From the NCBI RefSeq assembly GCF_054482595.1, contig NZ_CM137008.1: DNA of 64,000 nt; one strand, given 5' to 3'. The translations under genes were made by a program, and so were the position numbers. Below are positions 4,388 to 39,270 of the stretch, piece after piece (within the stretch, counting starts at the first letter, position 1; every line of letters starts with the position of its first letter). The notes under the pieces are model-generated. The model was not told the DNA's origin. It did no database searches and saw only the letters and a program-made list of their open reading frames with translations.

Positions 4388-4404
4388 ACAAAATGGCGGG
4401 ACAT

Positions 4405-4474
4405 GTAGGCCGGATAAGACGCGTCAGCGTCGCATCCGGCAATCAGCATCCGGCAATCAGCATCCGGCAATCAC
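4405..4474. repeat. REP (repetitive extragenic palindrome) followed by three tandem copies of a 14-bp unit (catccggcaatcag) at 4433-4474
   Basis: gtaggccggataagacgcgtcagcgtcgcatccggc is a REP consensus; tandem units directly visible; located between convergent ypfG and tktB. Confidence 0.6.
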
Positions 4475-7738: not shown

Positions 7739-10018
7739 ATGGATGACCAGTTAAAACAAAGTGCACTTGATTTCCATGAATTTCCAGTTCCAGGGAAAAT
7801 CCAGGTTTCTCCAACCAAGCCTCTGGCAACGCAGCGCGATCTGGCGCTGGCCTACTCACCAGGCGTTGCCGCACCTTGTCTTGAAATCGAAAAAGACCCG
7901 TTAAAAGCCTACAAATATACCGCGCGCGGTAACCTGGTGGCGGTGATCTCTAACGGTACGGCGGTGCTGGGGTTAGGCAACATTGGCGCGCTGGCGGGCA
8001 AACCGGTGATGGAAGGCAAGGGCGTTCTGTTTAAGAAATTCGCCGGGATTGATGTATTTGACATTGAAGTTGATGAACTCGACCCGGACAAATTTATTGA
8101 AGTCGTCGCTGCGCTCGAACCGACCTTCGGCGGCATCAACCTCGAAGACATTAAAGCGCCAGAATGTTTCTATATTGAACAGAAACTGCGCGAGCGGATG
8201 AATATTCCGGTATTCCACGACGATCAGCACGGCACGGCAATTATCAGCACTGCCGCCATCCTCAACGGCTTGCGCGTGGTGGAGAAAAACATCTCTGACG
8301 TGCGTATGGTGGTTTCCGGCGCGGGTGCTGCAGCAATCGCCTGTATGAACCTGCTGGTGGCTCTGGGGCTGCAAAAACATAACATCGTGGTTTGCGATTC
8401 AAAAGGCGTTATCTATCAGGGCCGTGAGCCAAACATGGCGGAAACCAAAGCCGCATATGCGGTGGTGGATGACGGCAAACGAACCCTCGATGATGTGATT
8501 GAAGGCGCGGATATTTTCCTCGGCTGTTCCGGCCCGAAAGTGCTGACCCAGGAAATGGTGAAGAAAATGGCTCGAGCGCCAATGATCCTGGCGCTGGCGA
8601 ACCCGGAACCGGAAATTCTGCCGCCGCTGGCGAAAGAAGTGCGTCCGGATGCCATCATCTGTACCGGCCGTTCCGACTACCCGAACCAGGTGAACAACGT
8701 CCTGTGCTTCCCGTTTATCTTCCGTGGCGCGCTGGACGTTGGCGCAACCGCCATCAACGAAGAGATGAAACTGGCGGCGGTACGTGCGATTGCAGAACTG
8801 GCCCATGCGGAACAGAGTGAAGTGGTGGCTTCTGCGTATGGCGATCAGGATCTTAGCTTTGGCCCTGAATACATCATTCCAAAACCGTTTGATCCGCGTC
8901 TGATAGTCAAGATTGCTCCTGCGGTCGCGAAAGCGGCGATGGAGTCGGGCGTGGCGACGCGTCCGATTGCTGATTTCGACGTCTACATCGACAAGCTGAC
9001 TGAGTTCGTTTACAAAACCAACCTGTTTATGAAGCCGATTTTCTCCCAGGCTCGCAAAGCGCCGAAGCGCGTAGTTCTGCCGGAAGGGGAAGAGGCGCGC
9101 GTTCTGCATGCCACTCAGGAACTGGTAACGCTGGGACTGGCGAAACCGATCCTTATCGGTCGTCCGAACGTGATCGAAATGCGCATTCAGAAACTGGGCT
9201 TGCAGATCAAAGCGGGCGTTGATTTTGAGATCGTCAATAACGAATCCGATCCGCGCTTTAAAGAGTACTGGACCGAATACTTCCAGATCATGAAGCGTCG
9301 CGGCGTCACTCAGGAACAGGCGCAGCGTGCGCTGATCGGTAACCCGACAGTGATCGGCGCGATCATGGTTCAGCGTGGGGAAGCCGATGCAATGATCTGC
9401 GGTACGGTGGGCGATTATCATGAACATTTTAGCGTGGTGAAAAATGTCTTTGGTTATCGCGATGGCGTTCACACCGCAGGTGCAATGAACGCGCTGCTGC
9501 TGCCGAGTGGTAACACCTTTATTGCCGATACATATGTTAATGATGAACCGGATGCAGAAGAGCTGGCGGAGATCACCTTGATGGCGGCAGAAACTGTCCG
9601 TCGTTTTGGTATTGAGCCGCGCGTTGCTCTGTTGTCGCACTCCAACTTTGGTTCTTCTGACTGCCCGTCGTCGAGCAAAATGCGTCAGGCGCTGGAACTG
9701 GTCAGGGAACGTGCGCCAGAACTGATGATTGATGGTGAAATGCACGGCGATGCAGCGCTGGTGGAAGCGATTCGCAACGACCGTATGCCGGACAGCCCTT
9801 TGAAAGGTTCCGCCAATATTCTGGTAATGCCAAACATGGAAGCTGCCCGCATTAGTTACAACTTACTGCGCGTTTCCAGCTCGGAAGGTGTGACTGTCGG
9901 TCCGGTGCTGATGGGCGTGGCGAAACCGGTTCACGTGTTAACGCCGATCGCATCGGTACGTCGTATCGTCAACATGGTGGCGCTGGCCGTGGTTGAAGCG
10001 CAAACCCAACCGCTGTAA
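7739..10018 (+). CDS. maeB: NADP-dependent malic enzyme (malic enzyme domain fused to a phosphotransacetylase-like C-terminal domain)
   Basis: 759-aa [26 protein letters not shown]...; divergent from talA. Confidence 0.95.
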
Positions 10019-10035
10019 TTCTTTTTTAACTCTCA

Positions 10036-10063
10036 CGCTTACCCTGAATATTCAGGGTAAGCG
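10036..10063. terminator. Perfect 13-bp-arm palindrome just downstream of maeB; possible terminator or protein-binding site (no clean U-tract)
   Basis: cgcttaccctgaa-ta-ttcagggtaagcg, 18 nt after the maeB stop. Confidence 0.4.
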
Positions 10064-10308
10064 GTCCAGCTGCAATATATTAGTAAAGCTTATTACTGAG
10101 TTTACGAATAATAAAAAAAGCAATATAAAATATCTCGATATTATTTTATTTATATTCATGCGTCGCATATGAAAGTTTATTCATAACAGTAAATATCTCT
10201 CCATTCTTAGTGATCTACCTCACCTTTTAAACGCGCTTGCCGAATTTTGTTATTTACTCTGACGAAAAATTGTCACGATACACGCAAGTTTTTCACAGGC
10301 GGCGACTC

Positions 10309-10644
10309 ATGGATAAAGAACGCATCATTCAGGAATTTGTGCCCGGCAAACAGGTCACACTGGCGCATCTCATCGCGCATCCCGGCGAGGAACTGGCGAA
10401 GAAAATCGGCGTTCCGGATGCTGGCGCAATCGGCATTATGACGTTAACTCCTGGCGAAACGGCGATGATCGCCGGTGATTTAGCACTGAAAGCCGCCGAT
10501 GTGCATATCGGTTTTCTCGACCGTTTTAGCGGCGCGCTGGTGATTTATGGCTCGGTGGGTGCAGTAGAAGAAGCATTATCACAAACCGTCAGTGGTTTAG
10601 GTCGCTTATTAAATTATACGCTTTGTGAAATGACCAAAAGTTAA
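10309..10644 (+). CDS. eutS: Ethanolamine-utilisation microcompartment shell protein EutS
   Basis: 111 aa from ATG 10309 ([15 protein letters not shown]...); BMC-domain protein; first gene of the eut operon, preceded by an AT-rich promoter region. Confidence 0.9.
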
Positions 10645-10656
10645 TACGAGGCATTC

Positions 10657-11136
10657 ATGAAACGAATTGCGTTTGTGGGTACCGTCGGGGCAGGAAAAAC
10701 AACGTTATTTAATGCGTTGCAGGGGAATTATACCTTCGCCAGAAAAACACAGGCCGTGGAATTTAATGATAAGGGCGATATTGATACGCCGGGTGAATAT
10801 TTTAGCCATCCCCGCTGGTATCACGCCTTAATTACCACGCTACAGGATGTGGACATGCTGATCTATGTCCACGGCGCAAATGACCCGGAAAGTCGGTTGC
10901 CTGCCGGGTTGCTGGATATTGGCGTCAGCAAACGGCAAATCGCCGTCATCAGTAAAACGGACATGCCAGATGCTGACGTCGCCGCAACGCGAAAGTTATT
11001 GCTTGAGACGGGCTTCGAAGAGCCGATTTTCGAGCTAAACAGCCACGACCCGCAAAGCGTGCAGCAACTGGTGGATTATCTGGCATCTCTCACCAAACAG
11101 GAGGAAGCAGGTGAAAAAACTCATCACAGCGAATGA
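10657..11136 (+). CDS. eutP: EutP, P-loop NTPase (acetate kinase-type) of the eut operon
   Basis: 159 aa, Walker A GTVGAGKTT. Confidence 0.9.
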   Translation: MKRIAFVGTVGAGKTTLFNALQGNYTFARKTQAVEFNDKGDIDTPGEYFSHPRWYHALITTLQDVDMLIYVHGANDPESRLPAGLLDIGVSKRQIAVISKTDMPDADVAATRKLLLETGFEEPIFELNSHDPQSVQQLVDYLASLTKQEEAGEKTHHSE

Positions 11137-11812
11137 TATTCGTGAAGCACACGCGCGCGGCGAACAGGCAATGTCCGTGGTTCTGCGCGCCAGCATTATT
11201 ACCCCGGAAGCCCGAGAAGTGGCGGATTTACTGGGTTTTACCATCACCGAATGTGATGAATCGATCCCGGTAACGGCGTCCGTGCCCGCCAGCGTGCCAG
11301 CCGATAAAACCGAAAGCCAGCGCATCCGCGAAACCATCATTGCCCAGCTGCCGGAAGGCCAGTTTACCGAAAGCCTGGTCGCGCAGCTGATGGAAAAAGT
11401 GATGAAGGAAAAACAGTCGCTGGAGCAGGGTGCAATGCAGCCGAGCTTTAAATCGGTGACCGGCAAAGGCGGCATCAAAGTTATTGATGGTAGCAGCGTC
11501 AAGTTTGGTCGCTTTGATGGCGCACAACCGCATTGCGTGGGCTTGACTGATCTTGTGACCGGAGACGACGGCAGCAGCATGGCCGCCGGTTTTATGCAGT
11601 GGGAGAACGCATTCTTCCCGTGGACCCTGAACTACGACGAAATCGACATGGTGCTGGAAGGGGAGCTGCATGTTCGCCACGCAGGCGAAACCATGATCGC
11701 TAAAGCAGGCGACGTGATGTTTATCCCGAAAGGCTCCAGCATCGAATTTGGTACGACATCCAGCGTGAAATTCCTGTATGTCGCCTGGCCGGCTAACTGG
11801 CAATCCCTATGA
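11111..11812 (+). CDS. eutQ: EutQ, cupin-fold ethanolamine-utilisation protein (acetate kinase activity)
   Basis: 233-aa ORF; start overlaps the eutP 3' end by 26 nt. Confidence 0.88.
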   Translation: MKKLITANDIREAHARGEQAMSVVLRASIITPEAREVADLLGFTITECDESIPVTASVPASVPADKTESQRIRETIIAQLPEGQFTESLVAQLMEKVMKEKQSLEQGAMQPSFKSVTGKGGIKVIDGSSVKFGRFDGAQPHCVGLTDLVTGDDGSSMAAGFMQWENAFFPWTLNYDEIDMVLEGELHVRHAGETMIAKAGDVMFIPKGSSIEFGTTSSVKFLYVAWPANWQSL

Positions 11813-12612
11813 AAGATTTCATCACCGAAGCATGGCTAAGAGCGAACCATACGCTCAGCGAAGGCGCAGAGATCCATCTCCCTGCGGACAGTCGCCTGAC
11901 GCCCTCTGCCCGGGAGTTGCTGGAAAGCCGCCATCTGCGCATCAAGTTTATTGACGAGCAGGGCCGCCTGTTTGTTGACGATGAACAGCAGCAGCCGCAG
12001 CCCGTTCATGGGCTGACCAGCAGCGATGAACATCCGCAGGCGTGCTGCGAACTGTGCCGCCAGCCGGTGGCAAAAAAGCCGGATACGCTGACTCACCTGT
12101 CGGCGGAAAAAATGGTCGCCAAAAGCGATCCGCGCCTGGGTTTTCGCGCGGTTCTCGACAGCACCATTGCGCTGGCAGTGTGGCTGCAAATTGAACTGGC
12201 GGAACCGTGGCAGCCGTGGCTTGCGGATATGCGTTCGCGTCTTGGCAACATTATGCGTGCCGATGCGCTGGGGGAACCGCTGGGCGATCAAGCGATTGTC
12301 GGGCTTTCTGACGAAGATCTGCATCGGCTTTCTCATCAGCCGCTGCGTTATCTTGGTCACGATCATCTGGTGCCGGAAGCCAGCCACGGGCGCGATGCGG
12401 CGTTGCTGAATCTGCTACGCACCAAAGTGCGGGAAACCGAAACCGTAGCGGCGCAGGTGTTTATCACTCGCAGCTTTGAAGTATTACGCCCGGATATCTT
12501 GCAGGCGCTGAACCGCCTTTCCAGCACGGTCTACGTGATGATGATCCTGAGCGTAACGAAGCCGCCGCTAACGGTGAAGCAGATCCAACAACGACTGGGG
12601 GAAACGCAATGA
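11809..12612 (+). CDS. eutT: EutT, ATP:cob(I)alamin adenosyltransferase
   Basis: 267 aa; ATGA overlap with the eutQ stop; conserved Cys cluster (CCELC). Confidence 0.9.
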
Positions 12613-13625
12613 TTATTGAACGTTGTCGTGAACTGGCGTTGCGAGCGCCCGCCAGAGTGGTTTTTCCGGATGCGTTAGATCAACGTGTGCTGAAAGCGGC
12701 GCAATATTTACATCAACAAGGTCTGGCAACGCCCATTCTGGTCGCCAATCCGTTTGAACTTCGTCAGTTTGCGCTCAGTCATGGCGTAGCGATGGACGGG
12801 CTACAGGTGATTGATCCGCATGGCAACCTCGCAATGCGGGAAGAATTTGCTCAGCATTGGTTGGCCCGTGCGGGCGAAAAAACGCCGCCGGATGCGCTGG
12901 AAAAACTCACCGAACCGCTGATGTTCGCCGCCGCAATGGTCAGCGCCGGTAAAGCGGATGTCTGTATCGCGGGCAACCTCTCTTCCACGGCGAATGTGCT
13001 GCGTGCCGGATTACGCATTATTGGCTTGCAGCCTGGCTGTAAAACGCTCTCATCCATTTTCCTGATGCTGCCACAGTACAGCGGTCCGGCGTTGGGTTTT
13101 GCCGATTGCAGCGTGGTGCCACAGCCGACGGCGGCGCAGCTGGCGGATATCGCACTTGCCAGCGCTGAAACCTGGCGCGCCATCACCGGAGAAGAGCCGC
13201 GCGTGGCGATGTTGTCGTTTTCCAGCAACGGTAGCGCCCGTCACCCCTGCGTAGCCAACGTCCAGCAGGCGACAGAAATCGTCCGTGAGCGCGCGCCGCA
13301 GCTGGTAGTCGATGGCGAGTTGCAGTTTGACGCCGCCTTCGTGCCGGAAGTGGCGGCGCAAAAAGCGCCTGCCAGCCCGCTACAGGGCAAGGCCAATGTG
13401 ATGGTTTTTCCGTCGCTGGAAGCCGGAAATATTGGCTACAAAATCGCACAACGACTCGGCGGATATCGTGCCGTCGGGCCATTGATACAAGGACTTGCCG
13501 CGCCGATGCACGATCTCTCTCGTGGTTGTAGCGTGCAGGAAATTATCGAGCTGGCGCTGGTGGCAGCTGTGCCGCGTCAGACAGAAATGAACCGCGAAAG
13601 CAGTTTACAAACACTGGTTGAATGA
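12609..13625 (+). CDS. eutD: EutD, phosphotransacetylase
   Basis: 338 aa; ATGA overlap with eutT; Pta-family sequence. Confidence 0.92.
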
Positions 13626-13663
13626 ACGGTCCCGTTCTGGACCCTGATAAAGAGGAAAGCACA

Positions 13664-13957
13664 ATGGAAGCATTAGGAATGATCGAAACCCGGGGCCTGG
13701 TTGCACTGATTGAGGCTTCTGACGCGATGGTGAAAGCTGCGCGCGTCAAGCTGGTTGGTGTTAAGCAGATTGGCGGCGGCCTGTGTACTGCCATGGTTCG
13801 TGGTGATGTTGCAGCCTGTAAAGCGGCGACCGATGCAGGTGCCGCAGCGGCACAGCGTATCGGCGAGCTGGTATCTGTACACGTTATCCCGCGTCCGCAC
13901 GGCGACCTGGAAGAAGTGTTCCCGATCGGCCTGAAAGGCGATAGCAGCAACCTGTAA
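13664..13957 (+). CDS. eutM: EutM, major BMC shell protein (hexamer)
   Basis: 97 aa from ATG 13664 ([28 protein letters not shown]...), canonical BMC domain; AGAGGAAAG RBS. Confidence 0.95.
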
Positions 13958-14063
13958 TCACCCTGTGTGACGTCGATTCGGGCGTCACGCTCTCTCATTT
14001 TTCATTTTACCTTCCGCGGAGGGTAGGGGGAGCTTTTACCTGAAATACGCCACGGAGGCGGGT

Positions 14064-14351
14064 ATGAAACTGGCAGTCGTCACTGGACAAATTGTTTGTA
14101 CCGTACGCCATCACGGACTGGCGCATGACAAATTGCTGATGGTGGAAATGATTGATCCACAAGGTAATCCTGACGGGCAATGTGCCGTCGCCATCGACAA
14201 TATTGGCGCGGGAACCGGGGAGTGGGTGTTGCTGGTGAGTGGCAGTTCCGCCCGCCAGGCGCATAAAAGCGAAACGTCACCGGTCGATCTGTGCGTGATT
14301 GGCATCGTCGATGAGGTGGTGTCTGGCGGTCAGGTAATTTTCCACAAATAA
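14064..14351 (+). CDS. eutN: EutN, BMC vertex (pentamer-type) shell protein
   Basis: 95 aa, MKLAVVTGQIVCTVRHHGL...; EutN/CcmL family. Confidence 0.92.
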   Translation: MKLAVVTGQIVCTVRHHGLAHDKLLMVEMIDPQGNPDGQCAVAIDNIGAGTGEWVLLVSGSSARQAHKSETSPVDLCVIGIVDEVVSGGQVIFHK

Positions 14352-14362
14352 GGCAGAACATC

Positions 14363-15766
14363 ATGAATCAACAGGATATTGAACAGGTGGTGAAAGCGGT
14401 ACTGCTGAAAATGCAAAGCAGTGACACGCCGCCCGCCGCCGTTCATGAGATGGGCGTTTTCGCGTCCCTGGATGACGCTGTTGCGGCAGCCAAAATTGCC
14501 CAGCAAGGGTTAAAGAGCGTGGCAATGCGCCAGTTAGCCATTGCTGCCATTCGTGAAGCAGGCGAAAAACACGCCAGAGATTTAGCGGAACTTGCCGTCA
14601 GTGAAACCGGCATGGGGCGCGTTGAAGATAAATTTGCAAAAAACGTCGCTCAGGCGCGCGGTACACCAGGCGTTGAGTGCCTCTCTCCGCAAGTGCTGAC
14701 TGGCGACAACGGCCTGACCCTAATTGAAAACGCACCCTGGGGCGTGGTGGCTTCGGTGACGCCTTCCACTAACCCGGCGGCAACCGTAATTAATAACGCC
14801 ATCAGCCTGATTGCCGCGGGCAACAGCGTCATTTTTGCCCCGCATCCGGCGGCGAAAAAAGTCTCCCAGCGGGCGATCACGCTGCTCAACCAGGCGATTG
14901 TTGCCGCAGGCGGGCCGGAAAACTTACTGGTTACTGTGGCAAATCCGGATATCGAAACCGCGCAACGCTTGTTCAAGTTTCCGGGTATCGGCCTGCTGGT
15001 GGTGACTGGCGGCGAAGCGGTAGTAGAAGCGGCGCGTAAACACACCAATAAACGTCTGATTGCCGCAGGCGCTGGCAACCCGCCGGTAGTGGTGGATGAA
15101 ACCGCTGACCTCGCCCGTGCTGCTCAGTCCATCGTCAAAGGCGCGTCTTTCGATAACAACATCATTTGTGCCGACGAAAAGGTACTGATTGTTGTTGATA
15201 GCGTAGCCGATGAACTGATGCGTCTGATGGAAGGCCAGCACGCGGTGAAACTGACCGCAGAACAGGCGCAGCAGCTGCAACCGGTGTTGCTGAAAAATAT
15301 CGACGAGCGCGGAAAAGGTACTGTCAGCCGTGACTGGGTAGGTCGCGATGCAGGCAAAATCGCGGCGGCAATCGGCCTTAAAGTTCCGCAAGAAACGCGC
15401 CTGCTGTTTGTGGAAACCACCGCAGAACATCCGTTTGCCGTGACTGAACTGATGATGCCGGTGTTGCCCGTCGTGCGCGTCGCCAACGTGGCGGATGCCA
15501 TTGCGCTGGCGGTGAAACTGGAAGGCGGTTGCCACCACACGGCGGCAATGCACTCGCGCAATATCGAGAACATGAACCAGATGGCGAATGCCATTGATAC
15601 CAGCATTTTCGTTAAGAACGGACCGTGCATTGCCGGGCTGGGGCTGGGCGGGGAAGGCTGGACCACCATGACCATCACCACGCCAACCGGTGAAGGGGTA
15701 ACCAGCGCGCGGACGTTTGTCCGTCTGCGTCGCTGTGTATTAGTCGATGCGTTTCGCATTGTTTAA
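14363..15766 (+). CDS. eutE: EutE, CoA-acylating acetaldehyde dehydrogenase
   Basis: 467 aa; aldehyde dehydrogenase family with N-terminal encapsulation-peptide-like region. Confidence 0.95.
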   Translation: MNQQDIEQVVKAVLLKMQSSDTPPAAVHEMGVFASLDDAVAAAKIAQQGLKSVAMRQLAIAAIREAGEKHARDLAELAVSETGMGRVEDKFAKNVAQARGTPGVECLSPQVLTGDNGLTLIENAPWGVVASVTPSTNPAATVINNAISLIAAGNSVIFAPHPAAKKVSQRAITLLNQAIVAAGGPENLLVTVANPDIETAQRLFKFPGIGLLVVTGGEAVVEAARKHTNKRLIAAGAGNPPVVVDETADLARAAQSIVKGASFDNNIICADEKVLIVVDSVADELMRLMEGQHAVKLTAEQAQQLQPVLLKNIDERGKGTVSRDWVGRDAGKIAAAIGLKVPQETRLLFVETTAEHPFAVTELMMPVLPVVRVANVADAIALAVKLEGGCHHTAAMHSRNIENMNQMANAIDTSIFVKNGPCIAGLGLGGEGWTTMTITTPTGEGVTSARTFVRLRRCVLVDAFRIV

Positions 15767-15776
15767 GGAGTAACAG

Positions 15777-16613
15777 ATGGCGCACGACGAACAATGGCTC
15801 ACCCCACGTCTGCAAACGGCGGCAACGCTGTGTAACCAGACGCCCGCCGCGACGGAATCTCCGCTGTGGCTGGGGGTGGATCTGGGCACCTGCGATGTGG
15901 TGTCGATGGTTGTCGACCGCGACGGTCAGCCGGTGGCGGTATGCCTCGACTGGGCCGATGTGGTTCGCGACGGCATCGTCTGGGATTTCTTCGGCGCGGT
16001 CACCATTGTTCGTCGCCATCTTGACACGCTCGAGCAGCAATTCGGTCGTCGTTTTAGCCATGCGGCGACTTCATTTCCTCCAGGTACGGACCCGCGTATT
16101 TCCATCAACGTGCTGGAATCTGCCGGGCTGGAAGTGAGCCATGTGCTGGATGAGCCAACCGCAGTCGCGGATCTGCTGCAACTGGATAACGCAGGCGTAG
16201 TGGATATCGGCGGTGGCACTACCGGCATTGCCATCGTGAAAAAGGGCAAAGTGACGTACTCGGCGGATGAAGCCACCGGCGGACATCACATCTCTCTGAC
16301 TCTCGCCGGAAATCGCCGTATTCCGCTGGAAGAGGCAGAGCAGTACAAGCGCGGTCACGGTGAAGAGATTTGGCCTGCGGTGAAACCGGTGTACGAAAAA
16401 ATGGCGGACATTGTCGCCCGGCATATTGAAGGGCAGGGCATTACTGATTTATGGCTGGCGGGCGGCTCCTGTATGCAACCGGGCGTGGCAGAACTGTTTC
16501 GCAAACAATTCCCGGCGTTACAGGTGCATTTACCGCAGCACAGTTTGTTTATGACCCCGCTGGCGATCGCCAGTAGTGGGCGAGAGAAAGCGGAGGGGCT
16601 ATATGCAAAATGA
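15777..16613 (+). CDS. eutJ: EutJ, DnaK/actin-fold chaperone-like protein
   Basis: 278 aa; ATPase-fold motifs (LGVDLGTCDV, DIGGGTTGIA). Confidence 0.9.
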   Translation: MAHDEQWLTPRLQTAATLCNQTPAATESPLWLGVDLGTCDVVSMVVDRDGQPVAVCLDWADVVRDGIVWDFFGAVTIVRRHLDTLEQQFGRRFSHAATSFPPGTDPRISINVLESAGLEVSHVLDEPTAVADLLQLDNAGVVDIGGGTTGIAIVKKGKVTYSADEATGGHHISLTLAGNRRIPLEEAEQYKRGHGEEIWPAVKPVYEKMADIVARHIEGQGITDLWLAGGSCMQPGVAELFRKQFPALQVHLPQHSLFMTPLAIASSGREKAEGLYAK

Positions 16614-17790
16614 ATTGCAGACCGCGCTCTTTCAGGCGTTCGATACCCTGAATCTGCAACGGGTAAAAACATTTAGCGTTCCACCGGTGACGCTTTGCGG
16701 TCCGGGCTCGGTGAGCAGTTGCGGACAGCAAGCGCAAACGCGTGGGCTGAAACATCTGTTCGTGATGGCAGACAGCTTTTTGCATCAGGCAGGGATGACC
16801 GCCGGGCTGACGCGTAGCCTGGCCGTTAAAGGTATCGCCATGACGCTCTGGCCATGTCCGGTGGGCGAACCGTGCATTACCGACGTGTGTGCAGCCGTGG
16901 CGCAGTTGCGTGAGTCAGGTTGTGACGGGGTGATCGCATTTGGCGGCGGCTCGGTGCTGGATGCGGCGAAAGCCGTGGCGTTGCTGGTGACGAACCCGGA
17001 TAGCACGCTGGCAGAGATGTCAGAAACCAGCGTTCTGCAACCGCGCTTGCCGCTGATTGCCATTCCAACTACCGCCGGAACCGGCTCTGAAACCACCAAT
17101 GTAACGGTGATTATCGACGCGGTGAGCGGGCGCAAGCAGGTGTTAGCCCATGCCTCGCTGATGCCGGATGTGGCGATCCTCGACGCCGCATTGACCGAAG
17201 GTGTGCCGTCGCATGTCACGGCGATGACCGGCATTGATGCGTTAACCCATGCCATTGAAGCATACAGCGCCCTGAACGCTACACCGTTTACCGACAGTCT
17301 GGCGATTGGTGCCATTGCGATGATTGGCAAATCGCTGCCGAAAGCGGTGGGCTACGGTCACGACCTTGCCGCGCGCGAGAGCATGTTGCTGGCTTCATGT
17401 ATGGCGGGAATGGCGTTTTCCAGTGCGGGTCTTGGGTTGTGCCACGCGATGGCGCATCAGCCGGGCGCGGCGCTGCATATTCCGCACGGTCTGGCGAACG
17501 CTATGTTGCTGCCAACGGTGATGGAGTTTAACCGGATGGTATGTCGCGAACGCTTTAGTCAGATTGGTCGGGCACTGCGAACTAAAAAATCCGACGATCG
17601 TGACGCTATTAACGCGGTAAGTGAGCTGATTGCGGAAGTTGGGATTGGTAAACGACTGGGCGATGTTGGCGCGACATCTGCGCATTACGGTGCATGGGCG
17701 CAGGCCGCGCAGGAAGATATTTGTCTGCGCAGCAACCCGCGTACCGCCAGCCTGGAACAGATTGTCGGCCTGTACGCGGCGGCGCAATAA
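16603..17790 (+). CDS. eutG: EutG, iron-containing alcohol dehydrogenase
   Basis: 395 aa from ATG 16603 (MQNELQTALF...); overlaps the eutJ 3' end by 11 nt. Confidence 0.9.
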   Translation: MQNELQTALFQAFDTLNLQRVKTFSVPPVTLCGPGSVSSCGQQAQTRGLKHLFVMADSFLHQAGMTAGLTRSLAVKGIAMTLWPCPVGEPCITDVCAAVAQLRESGCDGVIAFGGGSVLDAAKAVALLVTNPDSTLAEMSETSVLQPRLPLIAIPTTAGTGSETTNVTVIIDAVSGRKQVLAHASLMPDVAILDAALTEGVPSHVTAMTGIDALTHAIEAYSALNATPFTDSLAIGAIAMIGKSLPKAVGYGHDLAARESMLLASCMAGMAFSSAGLGLCHAMAHQPGAALHIPHGLANAMLLPTVMEFNRMVCRERFSQIGRALRTKKSDDRDAINAVSELIAEVGIGKRLGDVGATSAHYGAWAQAAQEDICLRSNPRTASLEQIVGLYAAAQ

Positions 17791-17792
17791 AT

Positions 17793-17857
17793 GCCGCGTC
17801 TTATCCGGTCTGTGGGATTGCACATGTAGTGCGGATAAGGCTTCACGCAGCATCCGC
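17793..17857. repeat. Degenerate REP element(s) in the eutG-eutH intergenic spacer, inside the operon
   Basis: gtagtgcggataaggcttcacgcagcatccgc resembles the REP consensus gtaggccggataaggcgttcacgccgcatccggc; a second partial copy lies upstream. Confidence 0.5.
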
Positions 17858-17889
17858 TAATAAATAACAACTAACAGGGAGTAAAGGCG

Positions 17890-19116
17890 ATGGGAATTAA
17901 CGAAATCATCATGTACATCATGATGTTCTTTATGCTGATAGCTGCCGTAGACAGGATCCTGTCACAGTTCGGCGGTTCTGCTCGTTTCCTCGGTAAGTTC
18001 GGTAAAAGTATCGAAGGATCAGGCGGTCAGTTCGAAGAAGGCTTTATGGCAATGGGCGCTCTGGGTCTGGCGATGGTCGGTATGACCGCGCTGGCACCGG
18101 TACTGGCTCACGTACTCGGGCCGGTAATTATCCCGGTTTACGAAATGCTCGGCGCAAACCCGTCAATGTTCGCCGGAACGCTGCTGGCGTGCGATATGGG
18201 CGGCTTCTTCCTCGCCAAAGAGCTGGCGGGCGGCGACGTAGCAGCGTGGCTATACTCTGGGTTAATTCTCGGGTCGATGATGGGGCCAACGATTGTGTTT
18301 TCCATTCCGGTGGCGCTCGGCATTATCGAACCTTCTGACCGTCGTTATCTGGCGCTCGGCGTGCTGGCGGGCATTGTGACCATTCCGATTGGTTGTATCG
18401 CTGGTGGTCTGGTAGCTATGTACTCCGGTGTTCAGATCAACGGCCAGCCGGTGGAATTCACTTTCGCCCTGATCCTGATGAACATGATCCCGGTGATCAT
18501 TGTTGCGATTCTGGTGGCGCTGGGGCTGAAATTCATCCCGGAAAAAATGATCAACGGCTTCCAGATCTTCGCCAAATTCCTCGTTGCATTGATCACCCTC
18601 GGTCTTGCCGCTGCGGTAGTGAAATTCCTGCTTGGCTGGGAACTGATCCCCGGTCTGGATCCTATCTTTATGGCCCCTGGCGATAAACCCGGTGAGGTGA
18701 TGCGCGCCATTGAAGTTATCGGTTCTATCTCCTGCGTTCTGTTAGGGGCGTATCCGATGGTGCTGCTGCTGACCCGCTGGTTTGAAAAACCGCTGATGAG
18801 CGTCGGTAAGGTACTGAATATGAACAACATCGCGGCAGCCGGCATGGTGGCAACGCTTGCCAACAACATTCCGATGTTCGGCATGATGAAGCAGATGGAT
18901 ACCCGCGGCAAAGTGATCAACTGCGCCTTCGCCGTTTCCGCGGCTTTCGCCCTGGGCGACCACTTAGGCTTCGCCGCTGCCAACATGAACGCCATGATCT
19001 TCCCGATGATTGTCGGCAAATTGATCGGCGGCGTAACGGCGATTGGCGTGGCGATGATGCTGGTGCCAAAAGAAGACGCGACCACGGCTAAAACCGAAGC
19101 GGAGGCGCAATCGTGA
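17890..19116 (+). CDS. eutH: EutH, ethanolamine permease (multi-pass membrane protein)
   Basis: 408 aa, highly hydrophobic. Confidence 0.92.
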   Translation: MGINEIIMYIMMFFMLIAAVDRILSQFGGSARFLGKFGKSIEGSGGQFEEGFMAMGALGLAMVGMTALAPVLAHVLGPVIIPVYEMLGANPSMFAGTLLACDMGGFFLAKELAGGDVAAWLYSGLILGSMMGPTIVFSIPVALGIIEPSDRRYLALGVLAGIVTIPIGCIAGGLVAMYSGVQINGQPVEFTFALILMNMIPVIIVAILVALGLKFIPEKMINGFQIFAKFLVALITLGLAAAVVKFLLGWELIPGLDPIFMAPGDKPGEVMRAIEVIGSISCVLLGAYPMVLLLTRWFEKPLMSVGKVLNMNNIAAAGMVATLANNIPMFGMMKQMDTRGKVINCAFAVSAAFALGDHLGFAAANMNAMIFPMIVGKLIGGVTAIGVAMMLVPKEDATTAKTEAEAQS

Positions 19117-20516
19117 ACACTCGCCAGCTATTGAGCGTCGGTATCGATATCGGCACCACCACCACCCAGGTGATTTTCTCCCACCTGGAGCTGGTTAACC
19201 GTGCGGCGGTGTCGCAGGTGCCGCGCTACGAATTCATTAAACGCGAAATTAGCTGGCAAAGTCCGGTGTTCTTTACCCCTGTCGATAAACAGGGCGGTTT
19301 AAAAGAAGCGGAACTGAAAACCTTAATACTCGAGCAATATCAGGCTGCGGGTATTGAGCCGGAAAGCGTTGATTCTGGTGCCATCATCATCACCGGTGAA
19401 AGCGCGAAAACCCGCAATGCTCGCCCGGCGGTGATGGCGCTCTCTCAGTCGCTGGGCGATTTTGTCGTTGCCAGCGCCGGGCCGCACCTCGAATCCGTGA
19501 TCGCCGGTCACGGAGCCGGGGCACAAACCCTTTCTGAACAACGGCTGTGTCGGGTACTGAATATCGACATCGGCGGTGGCACCGCGAACTACGCCCTGTT
19601 CGATGCCGGAAAAATCAGCGGCACCGCCTGCCTCAACGTCGGTGGTCGCCTGCTGGAAACCGACAGCCAGGGGCGCGTGGTTTACGCTCATAAACCGGGG
19701 CAGATGATTGTGGATGAGTGCTTCGGTGCAGGCACTGACGTCCGTTCGCTGACCGGCGCGCAGCTGGTGCAGGTTACCCGGCGGATGGCAGAACTGATTG
19801 TCGAAGTGATTGACGGAACGCTCTCACCGCTCGCGCAGGCATTGATGCAAACCGGTTTGCTGCCCGCAGGTGTTACGCCCGAAATCATTACGCTTTCTGG
19901 CGGCGTGGGCGAATGTTATCGCCACCAGCCCGCCGACCCGTTCTGTTTTGCCGATATTGGCCCGCTGCTGGCAACGGCGCTGCATGACCATCCGCGCCTG
20001 CGTGAGATGAACGTACAGTTTCCGGCGCAAACCGTGCGCGCCACGGTGATTGGCGCGGGCGCGCATACCCTTTCGCTCTCTGGCAGCACAATCTGGCTTG
20101 AGGGCGTACAACTGCCGCTGCGCAATTTGCCGGTGGCGATCCCGATTGATGAAACGGATCTGGTGGGTGCCTGGCAACAGGCGCTGATTCAGCTGGATCT
20201 TGATCCCAAAACTGACGCGTACGTGCTGGCGCTTCCCGCCTCGCTGCCTGTGCGTTACGCCGCGGTACTGACGGTCATCAACGCGTTGGTCGATTTCGTC
20301 GCGCGTTTTCCGAATCCGCATCCCCTGCTGGTGGTGGCCGGGCAGGACTTTGGTAAAGCTCTGGGCATGTTGTTGCGCCCACAGCTACAACAACTCCCGT
20401 TGGCAGTCATTGACGAAGTGATTGTCCGCGCGGGGGACTATATCGACATTGGTACGCCTCTTTTTGGCGGATCGGTTGTGCCGGTGACGGTGAAATCACT
20501 CGCATTTCCTTCCTGA
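19113..20516 (+). CDS. eutA: EutA, reactivating factor for ethanolamine ammonia-lyase
   Basis: 467 aa; GTG start overlapping the eutH stop (GTGA). Confidence 0.9.
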   Translation: MNTRQLLSVGIDIGTTTTQVIFSHLELVNRAAVSQVPRYEFIKREISWQSPVFFTPVDKQGGLKEAELKTLILEQYQAAGIEPESVDSGAIIITGESAKTRNARPAVMALSQSLGDFVVASAGPHLESVIAGHGAGAQTLSEQRLCRVLNIDIGGGTANYALFDAGKISGTACLNVGGRLLETDSQGRVVYAHKPGQMIVDECFGAGTDVRSLTGAQLVQVTRRMAELIVEVIDGTLSPLAQALMQTGLLPAGVTPEIITLSGGVGECYRHQPADPFCFADIGPLLATALHDHPRLREMNVQFPAQTVRATVIGAGAHTLSLSGSTIWLEGVQLPLRNLPVAIPIDETDLVGAWQQALIQLDLDPKTDAYVLALPASLPVRYAAVLTVINALVDFVARFPNPHPLLVVAGQDFGKALGMLLRPQLQQLPLAVIDEVIVRAGDYIDIGTPLFGGSVVPVTVKSLAFPS

Positions 20517-20527
20517 GGGAACGACTT

Positions 20528-21889
20528 ATGAAACTAAAGACCACATTGTTCGGCAATGTATATCAGTTTAAGGATGTAAAAGAGGTGCTGGCTAAAGCCA
20601 ACGAACTGCGTTCGGGGGATGTGCTGGCGGGCGTCGCAGCGGCAAGCTCACAGGAGCGCGTGGCGGCAAAGCAGGTGTTGTCGGAAATGACCGTAGCGGA
20701 CATCCGCAATAATCCGGTGATTGCCTATGAAGATGACTGCGTGACGCGGCTGATTCAGGACGATGTTAACGAAACGGCCTACAACCAGATTAAAAACTGG
20801 AGCATCAGCGAACTGCGTGAGTATGTGCTGAGCGATGAAACCAGCGTGGACGACATTGCCTTTACCCGCAAAGGGCTGACCTCGGAAGTGGTCGCGGCGG
20901 TAGCGAAGATTTGCTCCAACGCGGACCTGATCTACGGCGCGAAGAAAATGCCGGTAATCAAAAAGGCCAATACCACCATCGGTATTCCGGGCACCTTCAG
21001 CGCCCGTTTGCAGCCAAATGACACCCGTGACGACGTGCAAAGTATCGCCGCGCAAATCTACGAAGGGCTTTCCTTCGGGGTGGGCGATGCGGTGATCGGC
21101 GTCAACCCGGTAACTGACGACGTGGAAAACTTAAGCCGCGTGCTGGACACCATCTATGGCGTGATCGACAAATTCAACATCCCAACTCAGGGCTGCGTAC
21201 TGGCGCACGTCACCACCCAGATCGAAGCGATTCGTCGTGGCGCACCAGGCGGGCTGATTTTCCAGAGTATCTGTGGCAGTGAAAAAGGGCTGAAAGAGTT
21301 TGGCGTGGAACTGGCGATGCTCGACGAAGCGCGCGCAGTGGGTGCAGAGTTCAACCGTATCGCCGGGGAAAACTGCCTCTACTTCGAAACCGGACAAGGC
21401 TCTGCGCTGTCGGCGGGTGCCAACTACGGCGCAGACCAGGTGACCATGGAAGCGCGTAACTACGGGCTGGCGCGTCATTACGATCCGTTTATCGTCAACA
21501 CCGTGGTCGGCTTTATTGGGCCGGAGTATCTCTACAATGACCGCCAGATTATTCGTGCGGGCTTAGAAGATCACTTTATGGGTAAGCTGAGCGGCATCTC
21601 TATGGGCTGTGACTGCTGCTACACCAACCACGCTGACGCTGACCAGAACCTCAACGAAAACCTGATGATCCTGCTCGCCACCGCAGGCTGCAACTACATC
21701 ATGGGGATGCCGCTGGGCGATGACATCATGCTCAACTACCAGACCACGGCCTTCCACGACACCGCCACTGTGCGTCAGTTACTCAACCTGCGCCCGTCAC
21801 CGGAGTTTGAACGCTGGCTGGAAAGTATGGGCATTATGGCAAACGGTCGCCTGACCAAACGGGCGGGCGATCCGTCACTGTTCTTCTGA
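20528..21889 (+). CDS. eutB: EutB, ethanolamine ammonia-lyase large subunit
   Basis: 453 aa; starts 11 bp after the eutA stop. Confidence 0.95.
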   Translation: MKLKTTLFGNVYQFKDVKEVLAKANELRSGDVLAGVAAASSQERVAAKQVLSEMTVADIRNNPVIAYEDDCVTRLIQDDVNETAYNQIKNWSISELREYVLSDETSVDDIAFTRKGLTSEVVAAVAKICSNADLIYGAKKMPVIKKANTTIGIPGTFSARLQPNDTRDDVQSIAAQIYEGLSFGVGDAVIGVNPVTDDVENLSRVLDTIYGVIDKFNIPTQGCVLAHVTTQIEAIRRGAPGGLIFQSICGSEKGLKEFGVELAMLDEARAVGAEFNRIAGENCLYFETGQGSALSAGANYGADQVTMEARNYGLARHYDPFIVNTVVGFIGPEYLYNDRQIIRAGLEDHFMGKLSGISMGCDCCYTNHADADQNLNENLMILLATAGCNYIMGMPLGDDIMLNYQTTAFHDTATVRQLLNLRPSPEFERWLESMGIMANGRLTKRAGDPSLFF

Positions 21890-21909
21890 TGACGCGGAGA
21901 TAACACATC

Positions 21910-22797
21910 ATGGATCAAAAACAGATTGAAGAAATTGTACGCAGCGTGATGGCGTCAATGGGACAAACGGCCCCCGCGCCGTCAGAAGCAAAGTGCGCCA
22001 CTACCACCTGTGCGGCACCGGTGACCTCGGAAAGCTGCGCGCTGGATTTAGGTTCCGCTGAAGCAAAAGCGTGGATTGGTGTTGAAAACCCACATCGTGC
22101 GGATGTGTTAACAGAACTGCGTCGCAGCACCGTGGCCCGCGTTTGTACCGGTCGTGCCGGTCCGCGTCCGCGTACCCAGGCGTTGCTGCGTTTCCTGGCC
22201 GATCACTCTCGTTCGAAAGATACCGTACTTAAAGAAGTGCCGGAAGAGTGGGTGAAAGCGCAGGGCTTGCTGGAAGTACGCTCCGAAATTAGCGACAAAA
22301 ATCTCTACCTGACTCGCCCGGATATGGGCCGCCGCCTGTGTGCAGAAGCTGTTGAAGCGCTGAAAGCACAGTGTGTTGCTAATCCGGACGTACAGGTCGT
22401 TATTTCTGATGGCCTGTCAACTGATGCCATCACTGTGAACTACGAAGAGATCCTGCCGCCGCTGATGGCGGGCCTGAAACAGGCCGGGCTGAAAGTCGGC
22501 ACGCCATTCTTTGTTCGTTATGGTCGCGTGAAGATTGAAGATCAGATCGGTGAGATCCTCGGCGCGAAAGTGGTGATCCTGCTGGTGGGGGAACGTCCGG
22601 GGTTAGGGCAGTCAGAAAGCCTCTCCTGCTACGCCGTTTACTCGCCGCGTATGGCGACCACCGTTGAGGCCGATCGCACCTGCATCTCTAACATTCACCA
22701 GGGCGGCACGCCGCCGGTTGAAGCCGCAGCCGTCATTGTGGATTTGGCGAAACGTATGCTGGAGCAGAAAGCATCCGGCATCAACATGACCCGATAA
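21910..22797 (+). CDS. eutC: EutC, ethanolamine ammonia-lyase small subunit
   Basis: 295 aa; N-terminal [17 protein letters not shown] is an encapsulation-peptide-like helix. Confidence 0.95.
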
Positions 22798-22806
22798 GGA
22801 GGCATC

Positions 22807-23466
22807 ATGCCAGCTTTAGATTTGATTCGACCGTCGGTAACCGCCATGCGGGTGATTGCCTCCGTTAACGCCGAATTTGCGCGTGAACTGAAATTGCCGC
22901 CGCATATTCGTAGCCTCGGGCTGATTTCTGCTGATTCCGATGACGTCACCTACATTGCCGCTGATGAAGCGACCAAGCAGGCGATGGTGGAAGTGGTGTA
23001 TGGCCGCTCGCTGTATGCGGGCGCTGCACACGGCCCGTCACCGACTGCCGGTGAAGTGCTGATTATGCTTGGTGGGCCAAACCCGGCGGAAGTGCGTGCC
23101 GGTCTGGATGCGATGGTTGCGCATATTGAAAATGGCGCTGCTTTCCAGTGGGCTAATGATGCGCAAGATACGGCATTCCTGGCACATGTAGTTTCGCGTA
23201 CCGGTTCTTATCTCTCATCAACCGCCGGGATCACGCTTGGCGATCCGATGGCGTATCTGGTGGCACCGCCGCTGGAAGCGACCTACGGCATTGATGCAGC
23301 GTTGAAATCTGCCGACGTACAGCTGGTGACCTATGTCTCGCCACCGTCTGAAACCAACTACTCGGCAGCATTTTTAACCGGTAGCCAGGCAGCGTGTAAA
23401 GCGGCCTGTAACGCCTTTACCGATGCAGTGCTGGAAATCGCGCGTAATCCAATCCAGCGTGCGTAA
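22807..23466 (+). CDS. eutL: EutL, BMC shell protein (tandem-BMC trimer)
   Basis: 219 aa. Confidence 0.95.
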
Positions 23467-23478
23467 TGGAGGTTGCCG

Positions 23479-23979
23479 ATGATCAATGCACTGGGATTGC
23501 TGGAAGTGGACGGCATGGTCGCTGCGATAGATGCAGCGGATGCCATGCTCAAAGCAGCTAACGTTCGTCTGCTCAGTCACGAAGTGCTTGACCCTGGTCG
23601 CTTAACGCTGGTGGTGGAAGGCGATCTAGCGGCGTGTCGTGCGGCGCTGGACGCAGGTTGTGCTGCCGCGATGCGTACCGGGCGTGTCATCAGCCGTAAG
23701 GAGATCGGTCGGCCAGACGATGACACCCAGTGGCTGGTTACTGGCTTTAACCGCCAGCCGAAGCAACCCGTAAAGGAACCCGACGCGCCAGTTATCGTCG
23801 CGGAATCTGCTGACGAGTTGTTGGCGCTGTTAACATCAGTACGTCAGGGAATGACGGCAGGAGAAGTGGCTGCCCACTTTGGCTGGCCGCTGGAAAAAGC
23901 CAGAAATGCGCTCGAACAGCTCTTTTCTGCCGGGACGTTACGTAAACGCAGTAGTCGTTATCGTCTCAAGCCCCATTAA
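23479..23979 (+). CDS. eutK: EutK, BMC shell protein with C-terminal helix-turn-helix-like extension
   Basis: 166 aa from ATG 23479 (MINALGLLEVDGMVAAIDAADAMLKAA...); GGAGG RBS at 23468-23472. Confidence 0.9.
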   Translation: MINALGLLEVDGMVAAIDAADAMLKAANVRLLSHEVLDPGRLTLVVEGDLAACRAALDAGCAAAMRTGRVISRKEIGRPDDDTQWLVTGFNRQPKQPVKEPDAPVIVAESADELLALLTSVRQGMTAGEVAAHFGWPLEKARNALEQLFSAGTLRKRSSRYRLKPH

Positions 23980-24024
23980 CCTGTCGGAGGTGCCGGGTGT
24001 CCTACAACACCCGGCATTAACATC

Positions 24025-25077: not shown

Positions 25078-25082
25078 GGGAG

Positions 25083-25985
<903 letters not shown>

Positions 25986-26855: not shown

Positions 26856-27068
26856 ACGGCCTGAGTTGTAATAATAAAGTTCCAGATGTTATATCGTATC
26901 GCGTAATCCGTTACGACCGTTTGCTGTTGAGAATTGTTTTACTTTTCATTTCAATAGTTGACAACTCCCCATTATGCCACTTTTTCAACCGATTTTCGTC
27001 AGATATTGGCTAATTCGACCGTTCACGCCATAATCAGCCTTTTAACCCGCAAAAAGGTAACGAATACC

Positions 27069-39234: not shown

Positions 39235-39270
39235 GTAGGCCTGATAAGACGCGCAAGCGTCGCATCAGGC
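39235..39270. repeat. REP element between cysA and cysM
   Basis: gtaggcctgataagacgcgcaagcgtcgcatcaggc. Confidence 0.55.

Follow-up and report, generated by a model that had tools for sequence, protein, structure and literature searches.

The analysed stretch (the window) comprises 64,000 nucleotides (nt) of contig NZ_CM137008.1 in assembly GCF_054482595.1. It is a segment of an Escherichia coli chromosome with an uninterrupted ethanolamine utilization (eut) operon, and the K-12 annotation transferred to it gene by gene. The operon belongs to the EutR type; it contains the 17 K-12 genes and lacks eutV and eutW. The subject of this study is the spacer between eutM and eutN, and the RNA element of two hairpins that it encodes. 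A 701-nt query around this junction was matched in 5408 of 5426 complete E. coli genomes, and the annotated features there were eutM and eutN. The same two genes were annotated at the match in E. coli XH990, which was 100% identical. The spacer itself was single-copy and unannotated in 5407 genomes. In the initial annotation of the window, a terminator-like hairpin and a T-rich tract were pointed out in a 106-bp gap after eutM. They were proposed as a partial intrinsic terminator or RNA-stability element that would give higher expression of eutS to eutM than of the downstream enzymes, a way of setting shell-to-cargo stoichiometry. The length of the gap agreed with the gene boundaries (Table 1).

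The spacer RNA was predicted to fold into two stem-loops, i.e., hairpin 1 (HP1) and hairpin 2 (HP2), followed by a linker and the Shine-Dalgarno (SD) sequence of eutN. The inverted repeat of the initial annotation, i.e., gtgacg (13967-13972), ten bases (13973-13982), and cgtcac (13983-13988), was confirmed in the sequence. The positions given for it, 13965-13990, are those of the stem extended by a G-C and a G.U pair, and the core lies at 13967-13988. HP1 starts 7-9 nt past the eutM stop and has 8-10 pairs (6 G-C), a 6-nt loop, and a predicted free energy of -12.3 to -16.2 kcal/mol. The T-rich tract, ctctctcatttttcatttt (13990-14008), is not a free tract after the hairpin. By both the fold and the comparative alignment, it takes part in the conserved HP2, where it falls in the 5' arm (13989-13996) and the internal loop (13997-14007). 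UGAAA in the linker (14041-14045) may also pair with UUUCA in the HP2 internal loop (14000-14004) as a pseudoknot. This weakly supported candidate helix was 95% paired and was retained via one-sided changes. A small hairpin, GCC (14049-14051) with GGC (14057-14059), half-covers the eutN SD sequence.

Table 1. Features of the eutM-eutN junction, with positions changed relative to the Citrobacter freundii group (CDS, coding sequence).
Feature	Position	Strand	Description	Changed positions
eutM CDS	13664-13957	+	major BMC-H shell protein; stop TAA 13955-13957; upstream, highly expressed gene	
eutM-eutN intercistronic spacer	13958-14063	+	exactly 106 nt; single-copy, unannotated, under purifying selection	
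9 nt ahead of the HP1 stem			free to change	7/9
HP1	13965-13990	+	core 8-bp stem 13967-13974 : 13981-13988; G-C and U.G extension	1/16 (stem)
HP1 loop	13975-13980	+	GAUUCG; free to change	4/6
HP2	13989-14033	+	directly abuts HP1; outer helix 13989-13996 (GCUCUCUC) : 14026-14033 (GGGGGAGC)	2/14 (outer helix)
HP2 internal loop	13997-14007	+	11 nt, U-rich, AUUUUUCAUUU	
HP2 inner hairpin	14008-14014 : 14019-14025	+	loop CGCG 14015-14018	0/12 (inner helix)
Linker	14034-14053	+	UUUUACCUGAAAUACGCCAC; predicted single-stranded, conserved; UUUU 14034-14037 right after HP2	1/20
eutN SD sequence	14054-14058	+	GGAGG; 5-nt spacing, ATG 14064-14066	0-1/10
eutN CDS	14064-14351	+	pentameric vertex protein; downstream, very weakly expressed gene	

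Folding of the region, which the initial annotation had proposed as a check, gave a real structure straight after eutM on the sense strand. The minimum free energy of the spacer was -41.4 kcal/mol (z = -2.75), compared with z = -1.1 on the antisense strand. By stability, the 80-nt stretch with HP1 and HP2 ranked among the top 1.7% of the window, a notable position but not an extreme one. The motif GTGACG-N4-30-CGTCAC occurred once against 0.12 expected. The hairpin goes beyond chance, moderately by energy alone and decisively by conservation.

Changes in the spacer were normalised to the four-fold degenerate sites of eutD, eutM, eutN, and eutE at the same loci. Relative to two other Escherichia species, changes were seen at 2 of 105-106 spacer positions, both in loops, compared with 18.5-19.9% of the four-fold sites (P about 1e-7 to 3e-8), i.e., within Escherichia the spacer evolves about ten times slower than the four-fold sites nearby. 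In the comparison with the C. freundii group, 9 of 90 positions differed, the HP1 loop and the bases ahead of the stem being excluded, compared with 47.6% at the four-fold sites (P about 2e-14), which are nearly saturated at this distance (45-52%). The changes by part are listed in Table 1. The HP1 stem was changed at 1 of 16 positions against Buttiauxella as well, at 58% four-fold divergence.

The HP1 stem, GUGACG/CGUCAC, was invariant in 21 aligned sequences from five genera, with loops of 5-26 nt. One inner HP1 pair covaries (CG/UG/UA), and the stem in Yokenella is AUGACG/CGUCAU. In HP2, compensatory changes were found in both helices, and seven pairs were changed on both sides. The observed covariation score was reached in none of 500 shuffles, and 96.9% of the alignment cells were paired, compared with 41-65% with slid partners. 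Judging from the aligned sequences, the structure itself is conserved, beyond sequence alone. In the linker, ACCUGAA (14038-14044) was kept from Escherichia to Buttiauxella and Entomohabitans while its flanks diverged.

GTGACG...CGTCAC is a perfect inverted repeat, and it could be read as a DNA-level element, i.e., a transcription-factor site or an antisense promoter. The minus-strand TAAAAT (complement of 14003-14008) resembles a -10 box, and a weak antisense 3' end was listed at 13887, in eutM and 70 nt upstream of its stop, by Term-seq of E. coli MG1655 (Adams 2021). This end implies an antisense transcript crossing the spacer. However, the half-site spacing of 5-26 nt is unfit for a dimeric DNA binder, and the structure signal depends on the strand. 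The -10-like hexamer, in the most variable stretch of HP2, is not kept in Citrobacter R56 or Klebsiella spallanzanii, and the promoter scan was negative in the spacer. A DNA-level role is barely plausible on this evidence. On the minus strand, an open reading frame (ORF) of 151 aa at 13543-13998 lies antisense to eutM, with its start ATG within the spacer. It is very likely spurious because K-12 has C and not A at 13997, hence no ATG.

EutN was scanned in one genome per species, which gave 48 loci, and each eutM-eutN spacer was extracted. The junction and start-region statistics refer to 42 proteobacterial eut loci. The medians of six consecutive junctions were -4, 38, 110, 11, 10, and -11 nt, and eutM-eutN alone was consistently long. 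The hairpin-type spacer was found in Escherichia, the C. freundii complex, some other Citrobacter, K. spallanzanii, Entomohabitans, Buttiauxella, and Yokenella; in Entomohabitans, HP2 lies at the same position with an unrelated sequence. In Salmonella, K. pneumoniae, the K. oxytoca group, C. koseri, C. amalonaticus, C. sedlakii, Pseudocitrobacter, and Pluralibacter, the site of HP1, HP2, and the linker is taken up by repetitive extragenic palindromic (REP) elements. Besides singletons, at least three colinear arrangements of these REPs were seen. Matches to dispersed copies at 4404-4441, 17795-17813, and 39235-39263 of the window were obtained with the Salmonella, Klebsiella, and C. koseri spacers. 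Pseudomonas, one Rhodocyclaceae genome, and Pseudothauera carried unrelated G+C-rich structured spacers of 131-211 nt. A stable stem (free energy of -12 kcal/mol or lower) begins 5-9 nt past the eutM stop in all hairpin-type spacers and at most 13 nt past it in most spacers of the other types. The sequence around the eutN SD was conserved in hairpin-type and REP-type spacers alike.

The E. coli spacer was also searched as a REP or bacterial interspersed mosaic element, i.e., a dispersed multi-copy palindrome of the GCCGGATG...-type consensus, and there was no other match in the window and one copy per genome. A covariance model of the element matched this junction alone, and not the REP-type spacers, the remaining window, or three pdu loci. 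In E. coli EC931 (NZ_CP049118.1, 1364689-1364860), just the first 172 nt of the eutM query matched, and the annotation there reads BMC domain-containing protein and aldehyde dehydrogenase. This is probably a natural deletion that joined eutM to eutE, with loss of the spacer and eutN. K. spallanzanii (L043) combines the hairpin-type spacer with an EutM of 98% identity to the E. coli protein, and the other Klebsiella (L029-L031, L036) combine REP-type spacers with an EutM of about 96% identity, which may point to horizontal exchange involving the eut region. Enterobacterial eutN with 87-100% identity was found on 269-466-bp contigs of the Gemelliphila, Prolixibacteraceae bacterium, and Caballeronia assemblies (L019, L033, L044), and these contigs are probably contamination.

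A general rule of a hairpin after the major shell gene was considered and ruled out by the Salmonella-type pdu operon. There, pduA and pduB overlap by 4 nt, pduJ and pduK are 3-24 nt apart, and pduM and pduN are 3 nt apart, with no comparable spacer after pduA or pduJ or before pduN. The long structured spacer is a feature of proteobacterial eut operons and no general microcompartment rule. The absence from pdu would suit a spacer with no function of its own, i.e., a tolerated relic of an old operon boundary or terminator at the one junction where REPs can insert. REPs also fill the other long gap of the operon, eutG-eutH, and the spacer content has been swapped wholesale several times. A relic is nevertheless hard to reconcile with the roughly tenfold slower change within Escherichia, the 9/90 against 47.6% in the Citrobacter comparison, and the compensatory changes of HP2. 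Moreover, every one of the 42 loci has a long junction with a hairpin, even those of Pseudomonas and Rhodocyclales, whose sequences are unrelated. We regard a functionless spacer as highly improbable.

The conservation could instead reflect a sequence-specific regulatory RNA or binding site, i.e., a protein or small RNA (sRNA) target, or a released 3'-derived sRNA, that tunes the operon to a signal. Besides the invariant HP1 stem, UUACCUGAA is conserved though predicted to be single-stranded, and the possible pseudoknot is kept through one-sided changes. With its two hairpins, a C/U-rich stretch, and UUUU, the spacer resembles the 3' ends of Hfq-type sRNAs. However, the U-run is just 4 nt, selection on pairing alone can keep stems invariant without a binding partner, and the whole element is dispensable where REPs replace it. 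None of the Rfam 15 families matched 9500-27000 on either strand at E <= 1. A regulatory RNA of this kind is very unlikely. There is a slim chance that HP1, HP2, and the linker form a dedicated RNA that senses shell assembly and adjusts EutM:EutN, with REPs as a crude substitute elsewhere. It might be pseudoknotted, bound by an eut-encoded factor (e.g., EutK through its unexplained helix-turn-helix domain), or set free as a 3'-derived sRNA. This reading is kept because the HP1 stem is invariant, UUACCUGAA is conserved, and the possible pairing of loop and linker is retained.

Termination was evaluated by an approximate d'Aubenton-Carafa-type score d. In a terminator-like scan of 17.5 kb, 24 sites were found against 21.0 +/- 5.0 expected, and HP1 was the strongest (10 pairs). 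HP1 has the G+C-rich, short-loop stem of an intrinsic terminator, and the U-run directly 3' of it is missing: it is followed by CUCUCUCA, with no U-tract (T-score 0.7-2.0), and that stretch pairs in HP2. The HP1 core (13967-13988) scored d = -49.8. The extended 10-pair stem scored about -20, computed on the Escherichia sp. MOD1 orthologue (L003) with an identical stem. HP2 with UUUU scored -19.7 (T-score 3.2, rank 67 of 1751). Nineteen sites of the window had d > 0, from +1 to +45. Neither hairpin is a canonical intrinsic terminator, because both scores are negative and the true terminators in the window are positive. The partial intrinsic terminator of the initial annotation was not borne out by these values. 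The orthologue scores were all negative except that of HP1 in Buttiauxella noackiae (d = +4.5, tail UUUCUUUAA).

Published RNA and protein levels are listed along the operon in Table 2. The RNA evidence is a single table of reads per kilobase per million mapped reads (RPKM) from one strain, E. coli LF82, in basal and bile-salt-induced states (PMC6379400 Table 1). The UPEC and EHEC transcriptome papers reported fold changes alone, which do not serve for comparing levels within the operon. The protein values are relative abundances from quantitative proteomics of E. coli K-12 W3110 grown on ethanolamine (PMC11334477).

Table 2. Gap to the next gene, RNA level in LF82, and relative protein abundance in W3110 along the eut operon.
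Gene	Gap to next gene (nt)	RPKM, basal / induced	Protein
eutS	12	20 / 76	11
eutP	-26	39 / 166	7
eutQ	-4	24 / 192	100
eutT	-4	13 / 83	
eutD	38	108 / 357	10
eutM	106	55 / 177	96
eutN	11	5 / 62 (operon minimum)	1
eutE	10	14 / 149	27
eutJ	-11	13 / 147	
eutG	99 (inverted REP pair inside)	35 / 168	7
eutH	-4	106 / 514	
eutA	11	36 / 223	
eutB	20	61 / 358	37
eutC	9	47 / 286	24
eutL	about 12	30 / 126	39
eutK	45	37 / 94	8
eutR		142 / 308	

Both in the basal and in the induced state, the eutD-eutM segment was above its two neighbours, eutT and eutN, and the genes past eutN recovered. Across the junction, RNA dropped at eutN (55 to 5 and 177 to 62), with no lasting loss downstream in the induced eutE and eutJ. 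The proposal of the initial annotation that eutS to eutM exceed the downstream enzymes was not supported. The induced levels of eutH, eutA, eutB, and eutC lay above those of eutS, eutP, eutQ, and eutT, and EutS, EutP, and EutD were below EutE, EutB, EutC, and EutL. The recovery downstream and the higher level of eutH-eutC than of eutS-eutT argue against a step-down that sets shell-to-cargo ratios at this point. The sharp contrast is local, i.e., between EutM and EutN.

These levels also bear on a leaky Rho-independent terminator, by which some polymerases would stop at HP1 or at HP2-UUUU and all downstream genes would be transcribed less. The basal RNA dropped 11-fold from eutM to eutN and 4-fold from eutM to eutE. 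HP1 is the top terminator-like site in 17.5 kb, UUUU directly after HP2 is kept in Escherichia, Citrobacter, and K. spallanzanii, and HP1 with UUUCUUUAA reaches a positive score in B. noackiae. However, after induction eutE and eutJ stood at 84% of eutM, eutH-eutC exceeded eutS-eutT, and the downstream enzymes outnumbered EutS, EutP, and EutD of the upstream part. The E. coli and Citrobacter scores all lay between -17 and -50, and those of true terminators in the window between +1 and +45; the HP1 tail CUCUCUCA is itself paired in HP2. The REPs that replace the element also scored mostly negative, and REP elements are not intrinsic terminators. Leaky termination is an unlikely explanation of the junction; weak termination at HP2-UUUU is possible, and not as the main effect.

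At the eutT-eutD boundary (about 11809-12700), RPKM jumps from 13 basal and 83 induced to 108 and 357. Either an internal promoter or the 5' limit of a stable eutD-eutM RNA is suggested by this jump, and the promoter scan gave nothing at the boundary. In the Term-seq table of MG1655, no sense-strand 3' end was listed at the eutM-eutN junction, and the uninduced state of eut in those cells makes the table uninformative. The TERMITe supplements had no 3' end entry for the junction.

The protein levels were non-monotonic along the operon, with the upstream EutS, EutP, and EutD below downstream enzymes. EutM:EutN was about 100:1. The contrast between EutM and EutN is mostly translational, because EutE, whose gene starts just 11 nt past eutN, was 27-fold above EutN. 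The start regions were compared by opening energy, i.e., the computed cost of opening positions -20 to +12, which is a model value. It was 14.2 kcal/mol for eutN, 7.0 for eutM, and 6.8 for eutE, and the medians over the 42 loci were 13.5, 7.7, and 7.7 kcal/mol. The eutN start was costlier than that of eutM in 41 of the 42 loci and than that of eutE in 40, with both spacer types.

Several other candidate features of the spacer and the eutN start were examined. Pairing of the SD and AUG with eutN codons 12-16 was predicted in E. coli and was not adopted, since in Salmonella, C. werkmanii, and Buttiauxella it is disrupted with no compensating change. A pairing between CGTCAC of eutN codons 5-7 and the 5' arm of HP1 was rejected as well, the hexamer being equally kept in REP-type species and absent from Buttiauxella, which bears HP1. 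A small ORF in the spacer was rejected on the lack of a plus-strand ATG and on loop-length differences that are not multiples of three. The promoter scan of the spacer was negative for an internal sigma-70 promoter of eutN. The synonymous sites of eutN codons 1-17 (14064-14115) were almost invariant in Escherichia, Citrobacter, and Salmonella, e.g., TGTACCGTACGCCAT.

The spacer could be primarily a translational insulator or repressor of eutN, with RNA stability secondary. The spacer and hairpin would block re-initiation by eutM ribosomes, and the linker, the SD hairpin, and the possible pseudoknot would set low de novo initiation at eutN. Ratios of about 100:1 for EutM:EutN and 27:1 for EutE:EutN, with RNA only about 3-fold different, indicate a mostly translational contrast. 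The modelled cost of about 14 kcal/mol for eutN against about 7 for eutM and eutE, recurring in 41/42 and 40/42 loci with both spacer types, and the conserved SD surroundings in both types agree with this. In pdu, pduN follows pduM by 3 nt without a spacer, which would fit if only a very highly translated upstream gene calls for insulation, and PduM is presumably weakly expressed. However, with GGAGG at 5-nt spacing from an ATG, the eutN SD is strong, an unexpected trait if the gene is to be silent, and the pairing with codons 12-16 is broken in the three lineages named above. The opening energy is modelled, and relating it to protein abundance combines data of two strains and two studies. The strong conservation of HP1 and HP2, instead of any spacer, is also left unexplained. 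We consider insulation as the primary role possible, although rather unlikely.

Most likely, the spacer is a conserved element of two abutting stem-loops that protects the end of the eutM message from decay and does not stop transcription. In E. coli operons with differential decay, the end of a stabilised segment typically lies just past a stable hairpin without a U-tract, protective 3' hairpins are conserved, and stabilised genes carry more ribosomes than unstable ones (Dar & Sorek 2018, PMC5927463). The protective reading was rated best because every feature testable here fits this picture. A stable hairpin without a terminator U-tract begins 7-9 nt past the stop of the stabilised gene. The upstream eutM is more abundant than the adjacent eutN in the single RNA table, and structure is conserved at this position among relatives, other genera carrying a REP or a different hairpin there. 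Denser translation of the stabilised gene is suggested by EutM at 96 against EutN at 1 and by the modelled median opening energies of 7.7 against 13.5.

In this explanation, HP1 and HP2 would form on the polycistronic eut mRNA just past the footprint of the ribosome terminating at the eutM stop. An endonuclease would cut the poorly translated eutN segment, and 3'-to-5' exonucleases moving back from the cut would be halted by HP2 and HP1. The element would protect the 3' side of the eutM mRNA, and the heavily translated eutD-eutM segment would outlast the eutN segment. The long structured spacer would also uncouple eutN from the ribosome traffic of eutM, and the structured eutN start would hold EutN about 100-fold under EutM. 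We hold this combination of a protective 3' structure for differential decay with uncoupling and low translation of eutN at about even confidence. The LF82 profile fits a locally stabilised eutD-eutM beside an unstable, poorly translated eutN segment. The RNA-stability element named in the initial annotation is the reading that best fits the evidence. That annotation as a whole was partly supported: the idea of RNA structure and stability stood, and the partial terminator and the setting of shell-to-cargo ratios were not supported.

Several points weigh against the protective reading. No 3' end was mapped at the hairpins, the searched Term-seq table being from cells without eut induction. The RPKM pattern could equally be explained by an internal promoter before eutD with a leaky terminator, and the eutN minimum could be a coverage bias on a 288-nt gene. 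The dip could also be explained by poor eutN translation alone, with the hairpins unneeded. The induced eutE and eutJ are back at 149 and 147, so the downstream effect is small. The near-invariant HP1 stem and the conserved single-stranded UUACCUGAA exceed the needs of a generic exonuclease block, and pdu reaches a similar shell stoichiometry without such an element. The counts over the 42 loci are not independent, because the species compared are related.

In the layout of the operon, the initial statement that most eut gaps are 0-20 bp or overlapping was true for 12 of the 16 junctions, the exceptions being eutD-eutM, eutM-eutN, eutG-eutH, and eutK-eutR (Table 2). The long eutM-eutN gap was correctly singled out, but the second long gap, eutG-eutH (17791-17889), had been overlooked. 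It holds an inverted REP pair, and K-12 has a duplicated version of 216 nt (L001, 8132-8347). In induced LF82, RNA climbs across this REP gap, from 168 RPKM at eutG to 514 at eutH. In the region 19113-21889, eutA ends at 20516 and eutB starts at 20528. The gap of only 11 nt means that the operon is uninterrupted in the window strain; in K-12, we take a prophage to be inserted between these two genes.

The very unequal output of shell proteins from one microcompartment transcript is poorly understood, and it matters for the engineering of synthetic compartments. The element sits exactly between the genes of the most and the least abundant shell proteins, the EutM hexamer and the EutN pentamer. 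When eutM-eutN or whole eut operons are cloned for nanocompartments, the 106-nt spacer should not be treated as inert. In a natural swap, Escherichia and Citrobacter carry a double hairpin where Salmonella and Klebsiella carry REPs, so that the stabiliser, terminator, and insulator readings can be tested directly. The main value of the junction is that of a clean, naturally swapped test case of hairpin against REP inside an operon that builds a stoichiometric protein shell. Otherwise, it would be one further case of differential operon decay and of ordinary operon fine-tuning, with no new principle.

Four known systems were compared with the junction. The Firmicute EutV/ANTAR sites (PMC5821096) also have two adjacent hairpins in an untranslated region within an eut locus. 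Unlike that dual-hairpin substrate, whose conserved hexanucleotide loops overlap a terminator and which has a cognate EutV/EutW system, the HP1 loop is unconserved with 5-26 nt, the HP2 inner loop has 4 nt, no strong terminator overlaps, and eutV and eutW are lacking, so the element does not belong to this class. The 2018 eut review (PMC5821096) describes no intra-operon terminator for EutR-type operons. In SRPS, the selective processing and stabilization of RNA, stem-loops after selected genes set complex stoichiometry, e.g., in clostridial cellulosome operons (PMC8219983). The eut stem-loops are similar in lying in an operon for a large multi-protein assembly, after its most abundant structural subunit. 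They differ from SRPS, as described there in Clostridium, in the small operon-wide effect and the non-monotonic protein levels. Like rplL-rpoB, the eutM-eutN junction has a long structured spacer that separates a highly expressed gene from a less expressed one within an operon. The rplL-rpoB spacer is an intra-operon attenuator, i.e., a leaky intrinsic terminator, whereas eutM-eutN has no canonical hairpin and U-tract and scores negative.

The closest likeness is to malE-malF, whose intergenic protective structure, the founding example, is a REP. REPs are classical 3' mRNA stabilisers, and malE-malF is among the examples (PMC5927463). As in malE-malF and the structures of Dar & Sorek, the eut hairpins come directly after the gene of the most needed product, have no usable U-tract, and are conserved. 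Translation is heavy in the upstream gene and poor in the downstream one, and steady-state RNA is higher upstream than just downstream. The E. coli eut element differs from malE-malF in being a unique, single-copy structure and no REP, and its stabilised segment is internal (eutD-eutM), not the first gene, with RNA that recovers past eutN. The eut junction is read from sequence and steady-state levels. In the literature, Rfam, and RefSeq annotation searched, the element was undescribed for the eut operon, although an earlier mention in the original sequence papers is possible. The class of mechanism is well known. The likeness extends to the relatives, where the orthologous eutM-eutN junctions of other genera literally carry REPs.

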